From Bordetella parapertussis (lineage in GTDB: Bacteria; Pseudomonadota; Gammaproteobacteria; Burkholderiales; SG8-41): a DNA stretch of 64,000 nt. Location of the stretch: assembly GCA_945906815.1 (NCBI GenBank), contig CAMDRT010000011.1:27091-91090 (forward strand). The letters run 5' to 3'. Shown in pieces: positions 21,207 through 28,981 of this stretch. The notes under the pieces are model-generated. The model saw only the letters and a list, made by a program, of their open reading frames with translations, had not been told where the DNA came from and made no database searches. How positions within the stretch are numbered: position 1 is the stretch's first letter; each line of letters begins with the position of its first letter. The translations under genes were made by a program, and so were the position numbers.

Positions 21207-22232
21207 ATGAACACAGCAAGCCTGCTTGACAGCGATGAACCCGACAGCGTGCGCCTGACGGAGGCCGAGGCGCGTGCCCTTGGCGAAACGGCGGTGCAGC
21301 GCATCGGCTACAGCGCAGAGGACGCGCGCATCGTGGTGGATCAGTTGATCGACAACATGCTGTGTGGATACACCTTCGCCGGCCTGCCGCGCATTCTGGC
21401 GATGGCCGGTGACAAAAAACTCAAGCTGGGCCGCACGCCGATCACGGTGGTGCAGGAAACCCCGGTTTCCGCACTGCTGGACGGCGGCAACAATGTCGGT
21501 TACGTGGCGTGCTACCACGCCGCGCAAAAAGCGCTGGATAAAGCCAAGACGCATGGCATCGCCTGTGTCGGCGTCTACAACAGCTATTACAGCGGGCGTA
21601 ACGCCTATTTTGTCGAGCACATCGTGAAGCAGGGCTATGTGGCCATGCACACGGCGAGCGCGCAACCGCACGTGGTGCCCCCTGGCGCAACGCGGCCGGC
21701 GCTGGGGACCAATCCGATCTGTTTTGGTTTCCCGTCGGAAGAGGGGCCGGTGACGTTCGACATCGGCACCGCGTCGCTGATGTGGGGCGACATCATGTTG
21801 CACGCGCATTTGGGTGAGCCCTTGCCCGAGGGCGTGGGTATCGATGAACACGGCAATCCCACGCGCGATGCCGCTGCGGCACTGCAAGGCGGGGTAACGC
21901 CGTTCGGCGGCAAGGATCATGTTTACAAGGGCTACGGTTTGAGTTTCGCGATACAGGCGCTGGGGCTGCTCGCGGGCTCATTCCTCGCGCAAGACAGGGT
22001 GCGCGACTACGGCTTTTTGTTCTGGGTGGTGAATCCGCAAATCATGCTGCCCGGCAACGACTTCAGTCAGCGCATGTCCCAGTATGTGCGCGAGATGAAA
22101 GCACTGCCCAAACAGCAGGGCGTAAAGGAAATACGCATTCCATCGGAACGCGCCAGCAGGGAGCGGGAACGCCGGCGCATCGAAGGCCTAGTGATCAAGC
22201 GCAAGGTGGTGGAGTCTTTGAAGGCGCTTTGA
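21207..22232 (+). CDS. Ldh_2 family (malate/L-lactate/sulfolactate-type) oxidoreductase
   Basis: LGTNPICFGFP, FDIGTA, G.PT.DAAAAL.G, YKGYGL. Confidence 0.9.
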   Translation: MNTASLLDSDEPDSVRLTEAEARALGETAVQRIGYSAEDARIVVDQLIDNMLCGYTFAGLPRILAMAGDKKLKLGRTPITVVQETPVSALLDGGNNVGYVACYHAAQKALDKAKTHGIACVGVYNSYYSGRNAYFVEHIVKQGYVAMHTASAQPHVVPPGATRPALGTNPICFGFPSEEGPVTFDIGTASLMWGDIMLHAHLGEPLPEGVGIDEHGNPTRDAAAALQGGVTPFGGKDHVYKGYGLSFAIQALGLLAGSFLAQDRVRDYGFLFWVVNPQIMLPGNDFSQRMSQYVREMKALPKQQGVKEIRIPSERASRERERRRIEGLVIKRKVVESLKAL

Positions 22233-22256
22233 TTTTGTAGTTTCTGCCAAGGCAAC

Positions 22257-22838
22257 ATGCACATGACGCAAGAAGACAAACCCGAAATCTACGTCAGCAC
22301 CGACGTCGAAACCGACGGCCCCATTCCGGGACCCTACTCCATGCTGAGCATCGGCTGCGCGGCGTATCTGGCTGACAAAACGCTGGTCAGCACCTTCTCC
22401 GCCAATCTGGAAACGCTGCCCGGCGCCAGCGGCCACCCTCGAACCATGGCGTGGTGGGAAACGCAACAGCCCGCATGGGAAGCCTGCCGCAAAGATTGCG
22501 TGCCGCCGGAAAAAGCGATGGCCGATTGTCTCGCCTGGTTGCGAGGGCTGCCCGGCATGCCGGTATTCGTGGGGTTTCCGGTGACCTTTGATTTTATGTT
22601 CGTGCAATGGTACCTGTTCCGCTTTACCGGCAGCAGCCCGTTGGCACACTCGGGCATCGACCTGCGCACGCTGGGCATGGCGCTCACCAATTCAAACTGG
22701 CAGCAGTCGACCAAGGCGCATTTGCCCAAACGCTGGTTTGACCCCTTGCCACATACGCATGTAGCACTGGATGATGCGCTGGAGCAGGGCGCGATGTTTT
22801 GCAATATGCTGGCTGAACTGCGGCAGAAAAACTGGTGA
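22257..22838 (+). CDS. DEDDh 3'-5' exonuclease (RNase AS-like)
   Basis: [22 protein letters not shown]. Confidence 0.82.
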
Positions 22839-22924
22839 TGGCGGTACCGTTTTCCGCTCACCTGCGCGCCGCAGTTGAGCGCTGGGCGCAGTTGATCAAA
22901 ACCCATAAAATCAGCGTGGATTAG
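22838..22924 (+). pseudogene. 28-aa ORF resembling the C-terminus of a Bug receptor
   Basis: [28 protein letters not shown] resembles the ends of Bug paralogs in this window (e.g. FNDVVKNEIAKWRKIVNQLGIKVD). Confidence 0.6.
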
Positions 22925-22977
22925 TCATCGACCATCCACCACGGTACGCCGCGAACTCACTCAAAGCGATTGCCGCC

Positions 22978-23802
22978 ATGATCGCCGGTACCGCGTTACT
23001 GCTGGGCAACGATGCGGCAACGAAATTGCTGTCGCAATCTTACCCGGTGGGACAGGTGATCTGCCTGCGGCAGGCGGCGACGCTGCTGGTGATCGTGCCC
23101 TACATCATGGCCGTCAGCGGGTGGGGCGCGGCGCGCGTGGCGCACTGGCCGGGGCAGATATTTCGCGGACTGTTGTTCGTGGTCAGTTCCGCATTCATGG
23201 TGACCAGTCTGAGCCTGCTGCCGCTGACCACGGTGATCGCGATCACCTTTGTGAGTCCGATATTTGTTGTGCTGTTGTCGGCGCCGCTGCTGGGCGAGCA
23301 CGTGGGTGCACGGCGCTGGAGCGCGGTGCTGATCGGCTTCGTCGGCGTGCTGTTGATTGTACGGCCCGGCGCAGCAGGTTTCGAGTGGGTGTTGCTGCTG
23401 CCGGTGGCCACCGCGCTCATCAATGGCCTGCGCGATATCGTAACGCGGCGCTTGTCGCGTAGCGAGACCTCGATTTCGATCCTGCTATGCTCGACGCTGA
23501 TCGTCATGCTAGGGGGCCTCGCTACCGCACCCTTCGGCTGGCACGCGCTGGATGCGCGCGGCGCACTGCTGATTCTGCTGGCGGGCGTGTGCAATGCCGG
23601 CGCCCACTTTCTGATGATCGAGGCCTTGCGCATGGGTGAAGCGTCGCTGGTGGCGCCATTTCGCTATACCTCGTTTGTGTGGGCGCTATTGTTCGGTTAC
23701 CTGTTGTGGAATGAAGTCCCCGGACTGTGGGTGGCACTGGGCGTCGGCTTGATTATCGGCGGCGGGTTGTTTGCGTTTCGGGGAGCCGCAAGGCGCGCGT
23801 GA
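22978..23802 (+). CDS. DMT/EamA family transporter
   Basis: About 10 hydrophobic helices, LLGEHVGARRW, VRPG, APFRY. Confidence 0.9.
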   Translation: MIAGTALLLGNDAATKLLSQSYPVGQVICLRQAATLLVIVPYIMAVSGWGAARVAHWPGQIFRGLLFVVSSAFMVTSLSLLPLTTVIAITFVSPIFVVLLSAPLLGEHVGARRWSAVLIGFVGVLLIVRPGAAGFEWVLLLPVATALINGLRDIVTRRLSRSETSISILLCSTLIVMLGGLATAPFGWHALDARGALLILLAGVCNAGAHFLMIEALRMGEASLVAPFRYTSFVWALLFGYLLWNEVPGLWVALGVGLIIGGGLFAFRGAARRA

Positions 23803-23834: not shown

Positions 23835-25145
23835 TTACCCGGCAAGCGCCTGATACACAAGCTGGCGCATCAGCCCGCGCAGCCGCTGCTGCCCCGGCGC
23901 CTGCACCATCATGATGGCGATGAGTTGCTCTTGCGGATCCACCCAGAACGCAGTGCCGAACGCACCGTTCCAGTAGTACTCGCCCACCGATCCGGGCAGC
24001 GGATTTTTGCCTTGCTCGGTGCGCACCACAAAGCCGAGTCCCCAGCCCTGCCCCACGTCGGGCGATGGCCCCGCCGCGCCTTGCGTAACGATATGCGGGG
24101 TGTAGCGTATGCCTGAGGGCAGATGATTGGCAGTCATAGACGCCACGCTATGCTTTGACACGATGCGCACGCCTTCAAGTTCGCCGCCGTTGAGCAGCAT
24201 CTGGCAAAAGCGCACATAGTCCGACGCGGTTGCCACCATGCCGCCACCGCCACCGTAGCGCTTGGGTGGCGACTGCACATTGCGTGTGACGATGCGCTGG
24301 CCGGTGGCTTTGTTGATGTGTGATTCGGCGATGCGCCCGTGATGCGCGGACGGCACCGAGAAACCTGCGTCCCGGATGCCCAGCGGTTTGGAAATGCGCT
24401 CGCGAATAAACGTATCTAGGTCCTGTCCCGATACTACTTCCACCACACGCCCCAGCACATCGGTTGCCACGCTGTAGTCCCAGGTGCTTCCCGGTTGATG
24501 CGCGAGCGGCAGTTTTGACAGCCGCGTGATGAATTCCGGCGTGCTCAACTCCGGGCTGGAAATGCCGGCTTTGTCGTATTCGGTTTTGACCAGCGTCTTC
24601 GCGCCAAATTGGCCGTAGGTCAGCCCTGCGGTATGGCGCAGCAAATCCTGTAGCGTCATCTCGCGGCGCACCGGTTCGAGCACCAGCCTGGTCTCGCCGC
24701 CGGCATCTTTCTGCTCGACGCCAACTTGCAGCCCTTTGAATTCCGGCAAAAAATGCGACACCGGGTCGGTCAGCACGAGCTTGCCTTCTTCGGCCAGCAT
24801 CAGGGTGGCGACCGATACAAACGGCTTGGTCATCGACGCCAAACGAAAAATGGCGTCCGCCGGCATGACATCACCCACTTGCGGATCGCGCATGCCCAGC
24901 GTCTCGTAATAGGCCACCTTGCCGCGGCGCGCGACCAGCAGCACCGCGCCGGGCATGGTGCCTTTGTCGATCTCGGCTTTGAAGGTCTCGGTCAGGCGCT
25001 TGAGACGCTCCGATGAGAGGCCGACTTCTTCCGGAGTTTTCGCGCGCGGCAGGCCCTGCGCCGCCGCTGTGAATGAACACAAACACCACAGTAATGCCGG
25101 CAACGAACGGCGGAGTGCGACGGCGACGTACATGGTGTGCGACAT
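23835..25145 (-). CDS. serine hydrolase (beta-lactamase/EstB family), exported
   Basis: Signal peptide, FRLASMTK (SxxK), LLRHTAG, WDYS, W.GAFGT.FWVDP. Confidence 0.9.
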   Translation of the reverse strand: MSHTMYVAVALRRSLPALLWCLCSFTAAAQGLPRAKTPEEVGLSSERLKRLTETFKAEIDKGTMPGAVLLVARRGKVAYYETLGMRDPQVGDVMPADAIFRLASMTKPFVSVATLMLAEEGKLVLTDPVSHFLPEFKGLQVGVEQKDAGGETRLVLEPVRREMTLQDLLRHTAGLTYGQFGAKTLVKTEYDKAGISSPELSTPEFITRLSKLPLAHQPGSTWDYSVATDVLGRVVEVVSGQDLDTFIRERISKPLGIRDAGFSVPSAHHGRIAESHINKATGQRIVTRNVQSPPKRYGGGGGMVATASDYVRFCQMLLNGGELEGVRIVSKHSVASMTANHLPSGIRYTPHIVTQGAAGPSPDVGQGWGLGFVVRTEQGKNPLPGSVGEYYWNGAFGTAFWVDPQEQLIAIMMVQAPGQQRLRGLMRQLVYQALAG

Positions 25146-25197
25146 AATTCGATCCCTTTTGTGGTTGGCCGCGCGCAATGCTTCGCTTCACTTGTCC

Positions 25198-25932
25198 CTA
25201 TTGCACTGCAGCCCCCAACGACTTGCGTGCCCACTCGGCATAGGTGCCGGTGTCTATCATCTTGCGGCGTATCACGCCGCGCAGGGCTTCGAGTTCCTCA
25301 ACGCTGGGCGCGGGCGTAGCCGCTGCAGGGCCTTCCCCAATGTCAAAGCCGGTACTGTCGCGAATGTCATCCAACGTATAGCCTGGATGCACGGTATCCA
25401 GCCGAAATAACCCCGCGTCCTTGTCAAACAAGAAATTCGCCTTCGGCGTTACCAGCTTGGTGGGATTACCGTGCCGCAGCACATCCGGCGGCGTGCTGCC
25501 GGCGGCGGAGATGTAATCCACTTTCTCCACCAGCGAACGCTGCGTGTGCTCGGTGCGAAATACCACTGTGCGCCGCGCGCCGTAATAGATCATGCCACCG
25601 CCGTAACCACCGGGGAAACGCGCTGTGGGATGATCCAGGTCCGGGCCGAGCTGATGCAGGTTGTAGTTGCCGTGGCGATCCACCTGCACGCCACTGGCAA
25701 AAAACAGACCCAGCTCGCCGCGCTGCGCCAGAAAATGGAATTGCCTGGAGGTGTGAAACGGATTGAAGATGGAATTCAGAATGATCAATTCCGCGTTCGG
25801 TGCGTGCAGTGCCTGTGCCAGCAGCAGGCCGGCAGCAGGAATATGCGACAGTGCTCCGCACGCGGAGATCTCGCCATCGCGCACCTCGCGCGACAGCAGG
25901 ATCACCAGTAATTCGGCGTCCGTGTATGCCAT
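25198..25932 (-). CDS. family I CoA-transferase-fold beta subunit (GctB/IpdB-like)
   Basis: SGVQVDRHGNYN, RFPGGYG, EH..RSLVEKVDYISA, HPG; its ATG overlaps the alpha-subunit stop (TGATG). Confidence 0.88.
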   Translation of the reverse strand: MAYTDAELLVILLSREVRDGEISACGALSHIPAAGLLLAQALHAPNAELIILNSIFNPFHTSRQFHFLAQRGELGLFFASGVQVDRHGNYNLHQLGPDLDHPTARFPGGYGGGMIYYGARRTVVFRTEHTQRSLVEKVDYISAAGSTPPDVLRHGNPTKLVTPKANFLFDKDAGLFRLDTVHPGYTLDDIRDSTGFDIGEGPAAATPAPSVEELEALRGVIRRKMIDTGTYAEWARKSLGAAVQ

Positions 25933-26810
25933 CAGCCCACCACCGCCTGCGCCGGCTGCCGCCACGCCAAGGGGACAAAACGCGCCACATAATCATCGTG
26001 GTCGCGCACGCCATACACGTGCGTCTGTAAATACTCCTCGAACGCGGCATCGTCCTTCGACGCGATCACGTATTGCCGCATGTGGTGGTTGTCGGGCGCA
26101 TACACACCAAGGCACCCCGCCGGGTGGGCGCCAAACGGCGCATGCGCCACGGCATCCACGTGGATGGACGGTATGAAAGCGCCGATCGCTTCCTTTTCCG
26201 TCAAATGGTCAACCACACGCTCGGCGGTGACGATCACGTGTTTCGAGGCTTCCGCCAGTATCACTGCCTCGGCTTCGTAGCCGCAGGACACGTTGCCATG
26301 ACGATCGGCCACCTGCGCGTGGAACACAGCGACGTCCGGGCGCAACGCCTTGGCCACCACTGATTTGGTCTTGCCGTCAAACGGATCAACGGCTATCACC
26401 ATATCGTCGCGGCGCTGCAGCAGATCCGTGCCGACCAACCCCACCACCGGCACGTAGGGCACTCCCATAGACCCAGCCTGGGCCTGTGCAAAGAGCACCC
26501 CTCAGGTATTGTCGAGCGACCGCACTCTGCCCGCCAGCACGTAGCGCACAAAATTAGGACCGCTGCGGGCGAATTCGCCGAAGGTCACGCTGCAGGTGTC
26601 CACCACCTTCACTGCGCCCGCGCCCACCAGAAAATCAATATTGATGTCACCGCCTACCACGCCCACCACGCGCAGGTCGCGCGTGCCCTGCCGCACCAAC
26701 TGGCGCAGCAATGCCATCGGCGCACGATGGATATTGGCGCTCATCACCAATTGCGCGCCGGTCTTGATCGCCGCTGCCGCCTGCTCCAGTGTCGTGAGTT
26801 TGTCACGCAT
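25932..26810 (-). CDS. family I CoA-transferase-fold alpha subunit, 292 aa, in-frame TGA at codon 103 (candidate selenocysteine)
   Basis: MRDKLTTLEQAAA...DFLVGAG...SLDNT-TGA-GVLFAQAQAGSMGVPYVP...RPDVAVFHAQ.AD.HGN...GAHP; both halves in one frame; SD AAGGAGG; downstream SECIS-like hairpin. Confidence 0.85.
26456..26501 (-). promoter_or_regulatory. putative bacterial SECIS hairpin
   Basis: mRNA after UGA: GGGGUGCUCUUUGCAC-AGGCCCA-GGC-UGGGUCU-AUGGGAGUGCCCU; 7-bp upper stem, G-initial loop 23 nt after UGA, lower stem GGGUGCUC/GAGUGCCC. Confidence 0.72.
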
Positions 26811-27003
26811 GTGATCCTCCTTGATCCACGATTCGATTCATTGAAAAATCCGTCCGCCGCAAGCCGACGCTACAACGAAGTGTAGCCCGAATAGCCGCTC
26901 AGTAGCAGACGCTATTCTATTTTCAACCCGGCTGGTTTCACTGACTAGCCATTTCGTTGCACAATAGCCCCGCAATCGTTTTATTTTTTAATGGGAGGCA
27001 TTC

Positions 27004-27957
27004 ATGCTTACTGCGGCAATAGCTTTGTTGATTTTCGCGGCAACCGCGCACGCGCAGGATTTTCCGAGCAAACCGCTACGCATCGTCGTGCCGACGGCAC
27101 CGGGCGGCTCGTCCGACATTCTGGGGCGCCTGATCGGCGCCAAATTGCACGAACGGCTAGGGCAGCCAGCGGTGGTGGAAAACCGCGCCGGCGCCGGCCA
27201 GATGATAGGCGCGGATGTGGTCGCCAAAGCGCCCGCTGACGGGCACACCATGCTGCTGCCCACGGTGACTTACACCACCAGCGCTGCGACCCAATCGAAG
27301 CTGCCGTTTGATGCGGTGAATGACCTGACCGGCATCACCATGATCGGCGAAGGCGTGTTTTTGCTCGCGGTGCATCCGTCGCTGCCAGTGAAATCGGTGA
27401 AGGAACTGCTCGCGCTCGCGCGCGCCAGGCCGGGTAGTCTGATTTATGCGTCGTCGGGAACCGGCGGCATCACGCATTTGATTACCGAGGTGCTCGCCGC
27501 AAACACCAACATCAAACTCGTGCATGTGCCCTATAAGGGCGTGGCGCCCGCGGTCATCGATGTCGTCGGCGGGCATGTGCCGATGATTATCGTCAGCGTG
27601 CCCTCGGTGTTGCCCCAGGTCAAAGCGGGCCGCCTGCGCGCGCTCGCCTCTACCGGCGCGCAGCGCTCCCCGTTCGTGCCCGAACTGCCGACGGTGGCGG
27701 AAGCGGGTGTCCCCGGCTACGAAGCGCGTCAATGGTGGGGCATGCTGGCGCCGGGTAAAACACCGCGCGCCGTCATCGGCAAGCTCAACGGCGAGATCCA
27801 CAACATCCTCGCCTCCGCTGACGTCAAAGCGCGGCTCGCCGACGAAGGCGCCGAGCCGATACTGCGCATGACGCCGGAAGCCTTCAACGACGTCGTGAAA
27901 AACGAGATTGCGAAATGGCGCAAAATCGTCAATCAACTGGGTATCAAGGTGGATTGA
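27004..27957 (+). CDS. Bug/TctC substrate-binding protein
   Basis: FPSKPLRIVVPTAPGG, ENRAGAG, HVPYKG. Confidence 0.93.
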   Translation: MLTAAIALLIFAATAHAQDFPSKPLRIVVPTAPGGSSDILGRLIGAKLHERLGQPAVVENRAGAGQMIGADVVAKAPADGHTMLLPTVTYTTSAATQSKLPFDAVNDLTGITMIGEGVFLLAVHPSLPVKSVKELLALARARPGSLIYASSGTGGITHLITEVLAANTNIKLVHVPYKGVAPAVIDVVGGHVPMIIVSVPSVLPQVKAGRLRALASTGAQRSPFVPELPTVAEAGVPGYEARQWWGMLAPGKTPRAVIGKLNGEIHNILASADVKARLADEGAEPILRMTPEAFNDVVKNEIAKWRKIVNQLGIKVD

Positions 27958-27997
27958 TTTTCTGTATGCCTATGCGCATAGCGCGGGAGGAGGATTG

Positions 27998-28981
27998 ATG
28001 AGACCGGCTCAACCGCTACGCAACCTGAACATCCTGATCGTAGGGTTCGCGGGCTGCTTCGCATCAACCGCCGCCGCGCAGAGTTACCCGATCAAGCCGT
28101 TGCGTCTCATCGTGCCGTTCGCGCCCGGCGGCACCAACGACATCATGGCGCGCGGCATCACGCCGGAGATGAGTGCGATCCTCGGCCAGCAGATCGTCGT
28201 TGACAATCGCGGCGGCGCGAGCGGGCAGATCGGCGCTGAAGCCGTGGCCAAGTCGCCGCCCGATGGTTACACGCTGATGCTGGTGTCGAGTAGCGTGATG
28301 AGCCATGTGCCGGCGGCGTACTCCAAACTGCGCTACGACATGGCGCGGGATTTTGCGCCGGTCGGCAAGGTTGCCGAAGTGCCGCTGGTGATGGTGATGC
28401 ATCTCTCGGTGCCCGCCAAGACCACCAAGGAACTCGTCGCGCTCGCCAAGGCGCGGCCGGGCGAGTTACGGCTGGCGATCGGCGGCACTGGCACCACCAG
28501 CCATTTGGTTACGGAACTGTTCGCGCTCTCCACCGGCATCCGCGTGCTCATCGTGCCCTACAAGGGCGCGGGCCCCGCGCTGGTCGATCTGTTGGGCGGC
28601 CACGTCGACGGGCGCATCGACCAGATACCGTCATCGATGACGCACATTCAATCGCACCGGCTGCGCGCTATCGCCGTCACCACCGCGCGCCGCGCCGAAC
28701 TGCTGCCCAACGTGCCGACACTGAACGAATCGGGCGTGCCGGGCTTCGACGCCAGCTCGATGCTCGGCGTGTTCGTTGCGATGGGTACGCCAGCGGAGAT
28801 CGTGCAGCGCCTGAACGCGGCACTCAACAAGGTGCTGACCCATCCAGCAGTGCTGGAACGCTTCGCGTCACAAGGCGCCGAGGCGCGTCCCGGCAGCAGC
28901 GAGGATTTGGCGAAGTTCGTGCGCGAGGACTTCGCCAAGTGGAAAAAGGTGGTGCAGCAGGCGAAGCTTAAGTTCGAGTGA
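27998..28981 (+). CDS. Bug/TctC substrate-binding protein
   Basis: YPIKPLRLIVPFAPGG, VPYKGAGP; SD ggagga. Confidence 0.93.
   Translation: MRPAQPLRNLNILIVGFAGCFASTAAAQSYPIKPLRLIVPFAPGGTNDIMARGITPEMSAILGQQIVVDNRGGASGQIGAEAVAKSPPDGYTLMLVSSSVMSHVPAAYSKLRYDMARDFAPVGKVAEVPLVMVMHLSVPAKTTKELVALAKARPGELRLAIGGTGTTSHLVTELFALSTGIRVLIVPYKGAGPALVDLLGGHVDGRIDQIPSSMTHIQSHRLRAIAVTTARRAELLPNVPTLNESGVPGFDASSMLGVFVAMGTPAEIVQRLNAALNKVLTHPAVLERFASQGAEARPGSSEDLAKFVREDFAKWKKVVQQAKLKFE

Follow-up and report, generated by a model that had tools for sequence, protein, structure and literature searches.

The window analyzed here, a stretch of 64,000 nucleotides (nt) from contig CAMDRT010000011.1 of an assembly labeled Bordetella parapertussis, carries on its minus strand two overlapping genes for the α and β subunits of a predicted enzyme with the fold of the family I coenzyme A (CoA) transferases. 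The α gene (26810-25935, minus strand) comprises 292 codons, including an in-frame TGA at codon 103 (26504-26502, minus strand) that we read as selenocysteine (Sec, U in the sequences below). It is preceded by an AGGAGG-like site, has the GctA/IpdA/AibA-like CoA_trans fold PF01144 (66.1 bits in Pfam), and ends in a TGA stop codon (25934-25932, minus strand) that overlaps by one base the ATG of the β gene. The latter (25932-25198, minus strand) encodes a GctB/IpdB/AibB-like protein of 244 amino acids (CoA_trans, 44.2 bits). In the profile search, no NCBIfam cut-off is reached by either subunit. A hairpin resembling a selenocysteine insertion sequence (SECIS) element begins directly after the in-frame TGA (26456..26501, minus strand).

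The β gene is followed, about 52 nt downstream and in the same orientation, by a gene for a serine hydrolase of the PF00144 beta-lactamase family (25145-23835, minus strand; 219.5 bits), whose best NCBIfam match is AcmB-like, with 162.7 bits against a cut-off of 550. On the other side, divergent from the α gene and separated from it by a 193-nt spacer, lies a TctC/Bug solute receptor gene (27004-27957, plus strand; PF03401, 224.9 bits), followed by a second one (27908-28981, plus strand; PF03401, 235.5 bits), for which the open reading frame (ORF) is given from the first TTG and the real start is probably a later ATG. These coordinates confirm the layout proposed in an earlier, sequence-only reading of the locus, namely a pair co-oriented with a serine hydrolase and divergent from two Bug receptors. 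That reading also called the hydrolase exported; its N-terminus (MSHTMYVAVALRRSLPALLWCLCSFTAAAQG) looks like a signal peptide in the translation, and the protein is putatively exported.

The in-frame TGA and the hairpin after it

The comparison covers 27 loci, that is, the window and 26 loci from a scan of species-representative genomes (66-96% identity), the latter all in uncultured Betaproteobacteria/Burkholderiales assemblies according to their record titles. The α subunit reads SLDNTUGVLFAQAQAGSMGVPYVP around codon 103, and this codon is TGA at all 27 loci, within the context DNTUGV(L/I)(F/Y)(A/S)QAQAGSMG(V/L/I)PY. A degenerate DNA pattern around the site, applied to metagenome contigs, recovered 99 stretches with TGA and 0 with TGY; no DNA of Cys variants, which would show whether the frozen codons described below relax, was found in these contigs. 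Among the 120 best matches in the protein database, 119 are fragments of 170-190 amino acids that start at Met115, and the protein library clustered at 50% also contains N-terminal pieces of 102 amino acids (P0129, P0153), from which it follows that gene callers cut the gene at the TGA everywhere. The sole full-length protein among these 120 matches, P0003, has Cys at position 103 and 72% identity. Homologues with Cys at this position comprise P0003, 30 of the 122 full-length representatives, and all of the sister clade discussed below.

Codon usage was compared in 25 sequences, the window and 24 of the loci (L046 and L048, in which the N-terminus is cut, were omitted). At codons 104-106 the amino acid is kept in all 25, with two to four synonymous codons at each position, and translation therefore continues past the TGA. 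Since TGA also terminates the α gene itself, the code is standard and TGA is not generally recoded. It is near certain from these comparisons that TGA103 is a genuine, conserved Sec codon and that the α subunit is a selenoprotein, as the sequence-only reading had proposed; the 27 loci and the count of 99 to 0 in metagenomes bear it out.

We have also considered that the TGA is a true stop, in which case the gene would be split into parts of 102 and 178 amino acids, the second restarted at Met115, or would be a pseudogene. Gene callers do predict exactly these two pieces, and an AGG is located 12 nt 5′ of the Met115 ATG. However, the reading frame is preserved through codons 104-114, where the amino acids are invariant and the codons vary synonymously, residues 104-114 make the first turns of the helix 103-115, the Cys homologues run contiguously across the site, and the pattern is kept over loci of 66-96% identity. 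A true stop is accordingly extremely improbable. The genes selA and selB and the tRNA-Sec are found together at the start of contig C12 of the assembly (G000:C12:1467-6038), all with scores above the cut-offs.

The DNA following the TGA is constrained beyond its coding function. The first 150 codons include 77 that are conserved and degenerate; six of these are written with one and the same codon throughout the 25 sequences, and five of the six are consecutive (codons 109-113, CAG GCC CAG GCT GGG). The frozen codons form the top of the hairpin that starts right past the UGA, with an apical stem of 6 bp, GGCCCA/UGGGUC, closed by a GGC loop (within 26486-26470, minus strand), the loop lying 24-26 nt past the UGA. 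The apical stem is invariant at all 27 genome loci, while neighboring synonymous sites vary. The hairpin core of 15 bases, CAGGCCCAGGCTGGG, is identical at all 27 genome loci and also in all 80 metagenome loci returned (62 distinct 60-mers) by a search pattern that permitted 256 synonymous forms. A triloop hairpin at a similar distance is found in the TGA-interrupted selD genes of related genomes. The comparison of these sequences shows UGA103 as a codon predicted to be decoded as Sec with the aid of the frozen hairpin directly after it. The selD genes in question, from five relatives (L076-L080), are each interrupted by one TGA (GGGUGCK).

A side observation concerns the same stretch. In public lake and cave metagenome assemblies, contigs break at 26461-26504, the TGA/SECIS stretch, and the 44-mer at 26461-26504 has a word depth of 325 against about 10 in the flanks (run X3). 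It seems that the frozen element collapses many strains into one k-mer path, such a spike in depth being expected of a sequence common to many strains.

Residue 103 of the α subunit and the β-subunit loop

By homology, the products of the two genes are predicted to form a heterodimer with the family I CoA-transferase fold, within the GctAB/IpdAB/AibAB branch, the binding of α to β following from the same homology. In the phmmer alignment against the Protein Data Bank (PDB), α residue 103 is paired, with no gaps nearby, with E in 6co6_A and with A in 6coj_A, the latter entry being titled 'IpdAB E105A COCHEA-CoA complex' in the Foldseek listing. At the same column GctA has Gln and AibA has Gly. 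The AlphaFold2 (AF2) model of the α subunit is confident, with a predicted local distance difference test (pLDDT) score of 94.3, and residue 103 is the first residue of the helix 103-115, which follows the strand 97-100. Template modeling (TM) scores from Foldseek are 0.87 to GctA (1poi_A), 0.85 to IpdA (6co6_A), and 0.79/0.87 to AibA. The alignment and the model show that the predicted Sec103 corresponds to IpdA Glu105 and opens a helix. This placement had been suggested in the sequence-only reading, and the gapless match to 6co6_A and 6coj_A bears it out; the register given there was correct, and the letters were slightly off the actual IpdA sequence at the site, REMDEGMVKCGLEAAAARLPFLP.

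The β subunit reads ...HAPNAELIILNSIF... at the site where transferases carry their catalytic Glu. In GCT this residue is Glu54 of the β subunit, and IpdB has Gly57 there, according to PMC5380842. The phmmer search of the PDB pairs APNAELIILNSIF with APDCHIIVESGLM of GctB, with Asn53 opposite the GctB Glu, in a stretch that scores just 11.9 bits. In the MAFFT alignment, canonical β subunits read VVLIYESG... (His-type relatives) or VILHAENG... (the fused transferase of the same genome, L081), and a segment of about 21 residues that starts at the ESG/ENG motif is absent from the Sec family and its Cys relatives. On either alignment, substitution by phmmer or deletion by MAFFT, there is no acidic residue at the canonical site. 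Column 53 in the 26 family β subunits is N in 23 and G, R, and H in one each, that is, acidic in 0 of 26. The hhalign comparison of the β profile with the canonical enzyme of the genome aligned only residues 58-201, the Glu site being outside. As judged from these alignments, the loop that carries the transferase Glu is shown to be lost from the predicted β subunit, so that the earlier suggestion of a β subunit without this Glu holds across the whole subfamily. A Glu of 'GELCES' that tblastn places opposite Asn53 in His-type β subunits was rejected as a misalignment, the true motif in the MAFFT alignment being YESG.

Other features of the β subunit are retained. The Gly-rich loop is present, GGYGGGM being aligned to GGIGGAM of the canonical enzyme of the genome, and all 26 family members have Cys25. 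The AF2 model of β (pLDDT 87.2) has a strand at 48-51 followed by a loop.

The wider family was examined in an alignment of 122 full-length sequences (240-400 amino acids), drawn from the 150 top-ranking representatives, to which the query and P0003 were added; in it, column 103 is E in 43, C in 32, N in 17, G in 7, H in 7, and Q in 4 sequences, besides others. A quick IQ-TREE maximum-likelihood tree was calculated for 70 rows, consisting of 12 Sec sequences, P0003, and those 57 of the 122 representatives that had the highest scores. It contains a clade of 25 rows, with a Shimodaira-Hasegawa-like approximate likelihood ratio test (SH-aLRT) support of 99, that is made up of 13 Cys and 12 Sec sequences and nothing else. 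The Sec family and P0003 form a clade with support 100 inside this Cys/Sec clade, for which C/U103, G124, and R134 are specific invariants.

The pairing of the subunits was compared at loci taken from searches of whole genomes, among them L021, whose genome is flagged unpublished and which contributes one Cys row only. Cys α subunits of the 'TCP' type are paired with loop-deleted β subunits at L020, L022, L049, and L051 (MAFFT-aligned), and the local motif of the loop deletion is also seen in the β subunits of L050, L052-L054, Paracoccus, Sagittula, and Diaphorobacter. At L061, where α has Cys, NVAG replaces YESG in β. His-type α subunits are paired with YESG β subunits in three of three aligned cases (L056, L063, L065). 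The absence of the Glu loop from the Cys relatives and its presence in the His relatives fit a transfer of the catalytic residue to the α subunit, which supports the coupling of an α Sec/Cys to the loss of the β Glu that the sequence-only reading had put forward. The genome of the window also has a Glu-type α paralogue (ELDEAMYY; G000:C26:22458-23297, L068). A Cys-Cys α subunit at the Sec column is encoded on plasmid pNOCA01 of Nocardioides sp. JS614 (L086, NC_008697.1 164211-181023), where the pair lies between genes for a flavin adenine dinucleotide (FAD) oxidoreductase and a short-chain dehydrogenase/reductase on one side and an adenosine diphosphate (ADP)-forming CoA ligase on the other, and adjoins a phosphosulfolactate synthase gene cluster.

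The variability of column 103 in the alignment of representatives (E 43, C 32, N 17, G 7, H 7), together with the fact that AibA has Gly at this column and yet decarboxylates its substrate, could be taken to mean that Sec103 is not catalytic, having instead a structural, regulatory, or metal-binding role, with the substrate or other residues carrying out catalysis, as in AibAB. However, insertion of Sec is costly, and TGA is nevertheless found at 27 of 27 loci and in a further 99, against no Cys; the column is 100% Cys/Sec within the clade; and the residue matches the IpdA position that was chosen for the substrate complex of an inactive variant. We consider a non-catalytic Sec103 very unlikely.

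Gene neighborhood and proposed chemistry

The α and β genes alone are common to all loci. A PF00144 hydrolase is present at two of the 27, the window and L029 (77% identity, opposite strand), and is not a conserved partner. Genes of the esterase/lactonase type that are not homologous to the window hydrolase are found within 3.5 kb at 10 of the 27 loci; at five of the loci (L041-L044, L047) an Abhydrolase_3 esterase is located directly downstream of β in the same orientation, and the other hydrolases elsewhere among the loci are Esterase_PHB, Abhydrolase_1, and an amidohydrolase_2 lactonase-like gene. TctC/Bug genes, which are very numerous in these genomes, lie within 3.5 kb at 19 of the 27 loci and within about 400 nt at 11, and those that adjoin the pair fall into several orthologue groups with 37-49% mutual identity. 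A dedicated TctC receptor was sought and cannot be named, the adjacent genes being split in this way. The uptake-plus-catabolism module that had been proposed for the locus is therefore supported in part, by the Bug genes at 19 loci and the esterases at 10, while the PF00144 hydrolase (2 of 27) and the unrelated groups of Bug genes speak against it.

The remaining neighbors at the 27 loci are varied. Bicupin genes occur at four loci, a fumarylacetoacetate (FAA) hydrolase together with an aldo-keto reductase at five, Glyoxalase_3 at three, an HsaA-like oxygenase at three, SnoaL at two, and a PcaC-like carboxymuconolactone decarboxylase (CMD) at one; ADP-forming CoA ligases are neighbors at three (L036, L040, L048) and CoA_transf_3 at L026, and one locus of the 27 has a molybdenum (Mo) enzyme of the BisC family with a 2-hydroxyacid dehydrogenase. 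A family III CoA-transferase gene follows the α-β pair at L072, at L073, on plasmid 1 of Paracoccus denitrificans PD1222, in Sagittula, and in Diaphorobacter. In Diaphorobacter sp. HDW4B (L085, NZ_CP049906.1 206658-223428), the Cys-type pair and this transferase stand in an organosulfur context, near gorA, a gene resembling glutathione S-transferase (GST), and genes for cysteine dioxygenase and 3-sulfinopropanoyl-CoA desulfinase.

Downstream of the hydrolase gene, an Ldh_2-family dehydrogenase, a 193-amino-acid ORF, and an EamA transporter (21207-23802) are syntenic only with L023 and L024 (91-95% identity), where a 202-amino-acid ORF without a Pfam match takes the place of the hydrolase. At L028 (6603-7656) the TctC gene right after β is broken in the assembly by a TAA and a change of frame. 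The loci L023, L024, L026, L031, and L044 come from lake-metagenome assemblies titled 'Bordetella parapertussis', whose closest relatives are titled as metagenome-assembled genomes of Betaproteobacteria/Burkholderiales, and the species label on these assemblies looks unreliable.

On the basis of the sequence comparisons, the pair is taken to be a new selenoprotein family that is probably not a CoA-transferase. In the mechanism that we favor, a separate ligase or family III transferase would make an acyl-CoA, which the Sec enzyme would bind with the thioester in the retained Gly-rich oxyanion loop of β. The selenolate, or the thiolate in the Cys relatives, would act as the nucleophile on the carbonyl or on the α or β carbon next to the thioester. 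The likeliest course would be an IpdAB-like retro-Claisen C–C cleavage through a covalent Se-acyl or Se-hemiketal intermediate; in an alternative form, a C–S or C–X bond of the activated acid would be cleaved. The substrate may be a carboxylate arising from ester/lactone and ring catabolism. We give this account as a whole, a selenoprotein heterodimer in which Sec/Cys103 is the nucleophile in IpdAB-like cleavage of an acyl-CoA made elsewhere, a somewhat better than even chance.

Several points weigh against it. No selD was found in the assembly with the TIGR00476 profile or with tblastn, the best TIGR00476 match in the genome being ThiL-like (69.7 bits); the assembly consists of 97 contigs with a completeness of 95.25%, and selD is above the cut-off in all five of the related genomes tested, all of which carry the Sec gene. 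Shuffled sequence folds just as stably as the hairpin (z 0.07), the invariance of the stem leaves no covariation to be seen, and no Rfam family was matched, whether over the window at gathering score or over 26400-26560 at E<=10. In L020 the β subunit carries Glu at the aligned column (tblastn context), and in another Cys group, that of Nocardioides JS614, an ESCC α subunit is combined with a LLVEGA β subunit, so that Cys coexists with the canonical β Glu. The neighborhoods are heterogeneous, and their lactonase/esterase, PcaC-like, and muconolactone-isomerase genes are just as compatible with a PcaIJ-like transferase step. Redox chemistry is the usual role of Sec. Finally, the account presupposes that IpdA Glu105 is the catalytic base.

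Another possibility is that the enzyme is still a CoA-transferase. Sec/Cys103 would then replace the β Glu, with an acyl-selenoester as the first covalent species and a mixed anhydride with the acceptor acid as the second, in a PcaIJ-like activation of a β-keto or dicarboxylic acid supplied by the neighboring esterases/lactonases. The fold and the Gly-rich loop are retained; esterase/lactonase genes lie within 3.5 kb at 10 of the 27 loci; the PcaC-like CMD, muconolactone isomerase, bicupin, and FAA-hydrolase neighbors resemble pathways of the β-ketoadipate type; and no other CoA-activating gene is found near most Sec-family loci. However, the pair of the Cys sister clade stands in operons with a family III CoA-transferase, and we know of no family I member that works without the β Glu. 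Of the two characterized members without it, one is a hydrolase (IpdAB, PMC5380842) and the other a decarboxylase (AibAB, by the PDB titles). A transferase of this kind is in our view unlikely.

The position of Sec103 at a helix N-terminus after a strand, which is generally the usual setting of redox Cys and Sec residues, raises instead the possibility of a redox enzyme. Sec103 would attack a heteroatom (of a thioether, halide, or similar group) next to the thioester and release an acyl-CoA enolate, and the Se–S or Se–X adduct would be resolved by a thiol, either β Cys25 or a partner reductase, in analogy to the logic of glycine/proline reductase or of 2-ketopropyl-coenzyme M carboxylase. The invariance of β Cys25 in 26 of 26 members is consistent with this, as are the BisC-family S/N-oxide reductase and CMD genes, which recur (L035, L033, L070, Paracoccus, Sagittula), and the gorA, GST-like, cysteine dioxygenase, and 3-sulfinopropanoyl-CoA desulfinase genes beside the Diaphorobacter pair. 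On the other hand, Cys25 is not kept in the β subunits of the Cys-type relatives (AVGA/AVGV), CxxU and UxxC motifs are both absent from the α subunit, the loci share no consistently neighboring reductase, and the sulfur-looking flavoproteins are HsaA/HpaB-like, the SfnB model giving 73-80 bits against a cut-off of 431. We regard redox chemistry of this type as rather unlikely. A sulfur-compound context for the window was likewise tried and not adopted, the Acyl-CoA_dh_2 neighbors being HsaA/HpaB-like and the Ldh_2 of the window scoring 175 bits against 500 for sulfolactate dehydrogenase; it stays a lead.

Comparison with known systems

A full-text literature search, with supplements outside its scope, gave no report of a selenoprotein with the CoA-transferase fold. 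Almost all known prokaryotic selenoproteins are redox proteins. No PF01144/CoA-transferase family is included in the passages covered of the selenoprotein table in a 2026 review (PMC13188914); those covered of the deep-Sep paper likewise list no selenoprotein of this fold. We suggest tentatively, as a possible but doubtful outcome, that the pair is the first CoA-thioester enzyme with a selenium nucleophile, acting through an acyl-selenoester, a Se-hemiketal, or a Se–S adduct, and that it represents the Sec form of a large, unrecognized, Cys-dependent class of lyases/hydrolases with the CoA-transferase fold, whose catalytic residue has shifted from β to α. If so, an aerobic freshwater heterotroph would provide a rare case of Sec outside the classical redox proteins, and the occurrence of Sec where a CoA-ester enzyme has its catalytic residue would broaden the known biological roles of selenium. 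The pair would also define a third exit of the fold from CoA transfer, after the Glu of IpdAB and the substrate-assisted catalysis of AibAB, and would correct a systematic annotation error, by which hundreds of database entries are fragments of 178 and 102 amino acids.

In their chemistry, glycine reductase (GrdA/GrdB) and D-proline reductase (PrdB) offer a parallel, a Sec nucleophile acting on carbon or a heteroatom with bond cleavage beside a carboxyl or thioester group. Their folds, however, are unrelated, and the loci considered here showed neither pyruvoyl nor thioredoxin partners.

Among the enzymes of the same fold, GctAB (1POI) is the best match in sequence and fold, with an E value of 7.9e-32 and a TM score of 0.87 for α and a profile E value of 1.2e-28 for β; but the catalytic Glu54 is present in GctB, in the sequence IIVESG, and the Sec column is Gln in GctA, whereas the Sec enzyme is without the Glu loop. 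The canonical family I enzymes (PcaIJ/ScoAB/AtoDA) share the PF01144 fold and the Gly-rich GGxGG loop. The fused canonical copy in the same genome (L081 1471-2865; G000:C13:4565-5959) has PQG on its α part and HAENG on its β part, in contrast to the NTUG of the Sec enzyme, which has no ENG loop.

The likeness extends to the members of the fold that are not transferases. AibAB, a 3-methylglutaconyl-CoA decarboxylase (5MZW and others), belongs to the same branch of the fold (E value of 1.8e-26 for α, TM 0.79/0.87), and the Sec-family β aligns with AibB over its full length in the comparison of the profile with the PDB; it differs in having Gly at the Sec column, the identity being 29%, and its isovalerate-pathway context was not seen at the loci examined. 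IpdAB, the ring-cleaving hydrolase that acts on COCHEA-CoA in steroid catabolism (6CO6, 6CO9, 6COJ, 6CON), has the same two-subunit fold (TM 0.85, 26% identity), a β subunit without the transferase Glu (PMC5380842), and a special α residue at the same alignment position. This residue is Glu in IpdA and Sec here, and the β Glu is lost in different ways, by a Gly substitution in IpdB and by a loop deletion in the Sec family. Unlike IpdAB, the Sec enzyme has no steroid-pathway (ring C/D) genes among the neighbors scanned at the 27 loci.

The uncharacterized pair of Paracoccus denitrificans PD1222 (WP_011750822.1/WP_011750821.1) resembles the Sec enzyme in both subunits, with DATCPA in α and a loop-deleted β (36.6% identity). 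It has Cys in place of Sec, and it heads a long uncharacterized operon on plasmid 1 (L082, NC_008688.1 74014-92805) with genes for a family III CoA-transferase, a 2-hydroxyacid dehydrogenase, a class II aldolase, an FGGY kinase, a thiamine diphosphate (ThDP) enzyme, and a Mo oxidoreductase. An ATP-binding cassette (ABC) importer and an IclR gene are divergent from this operon, and Sagittula sp. P11 (L084) has the same gene order. The Cys-dependent class, if real, would include the Paracoccus operon, and the presence of the Cys sister clade in this tractable organism makes the question directly testable.

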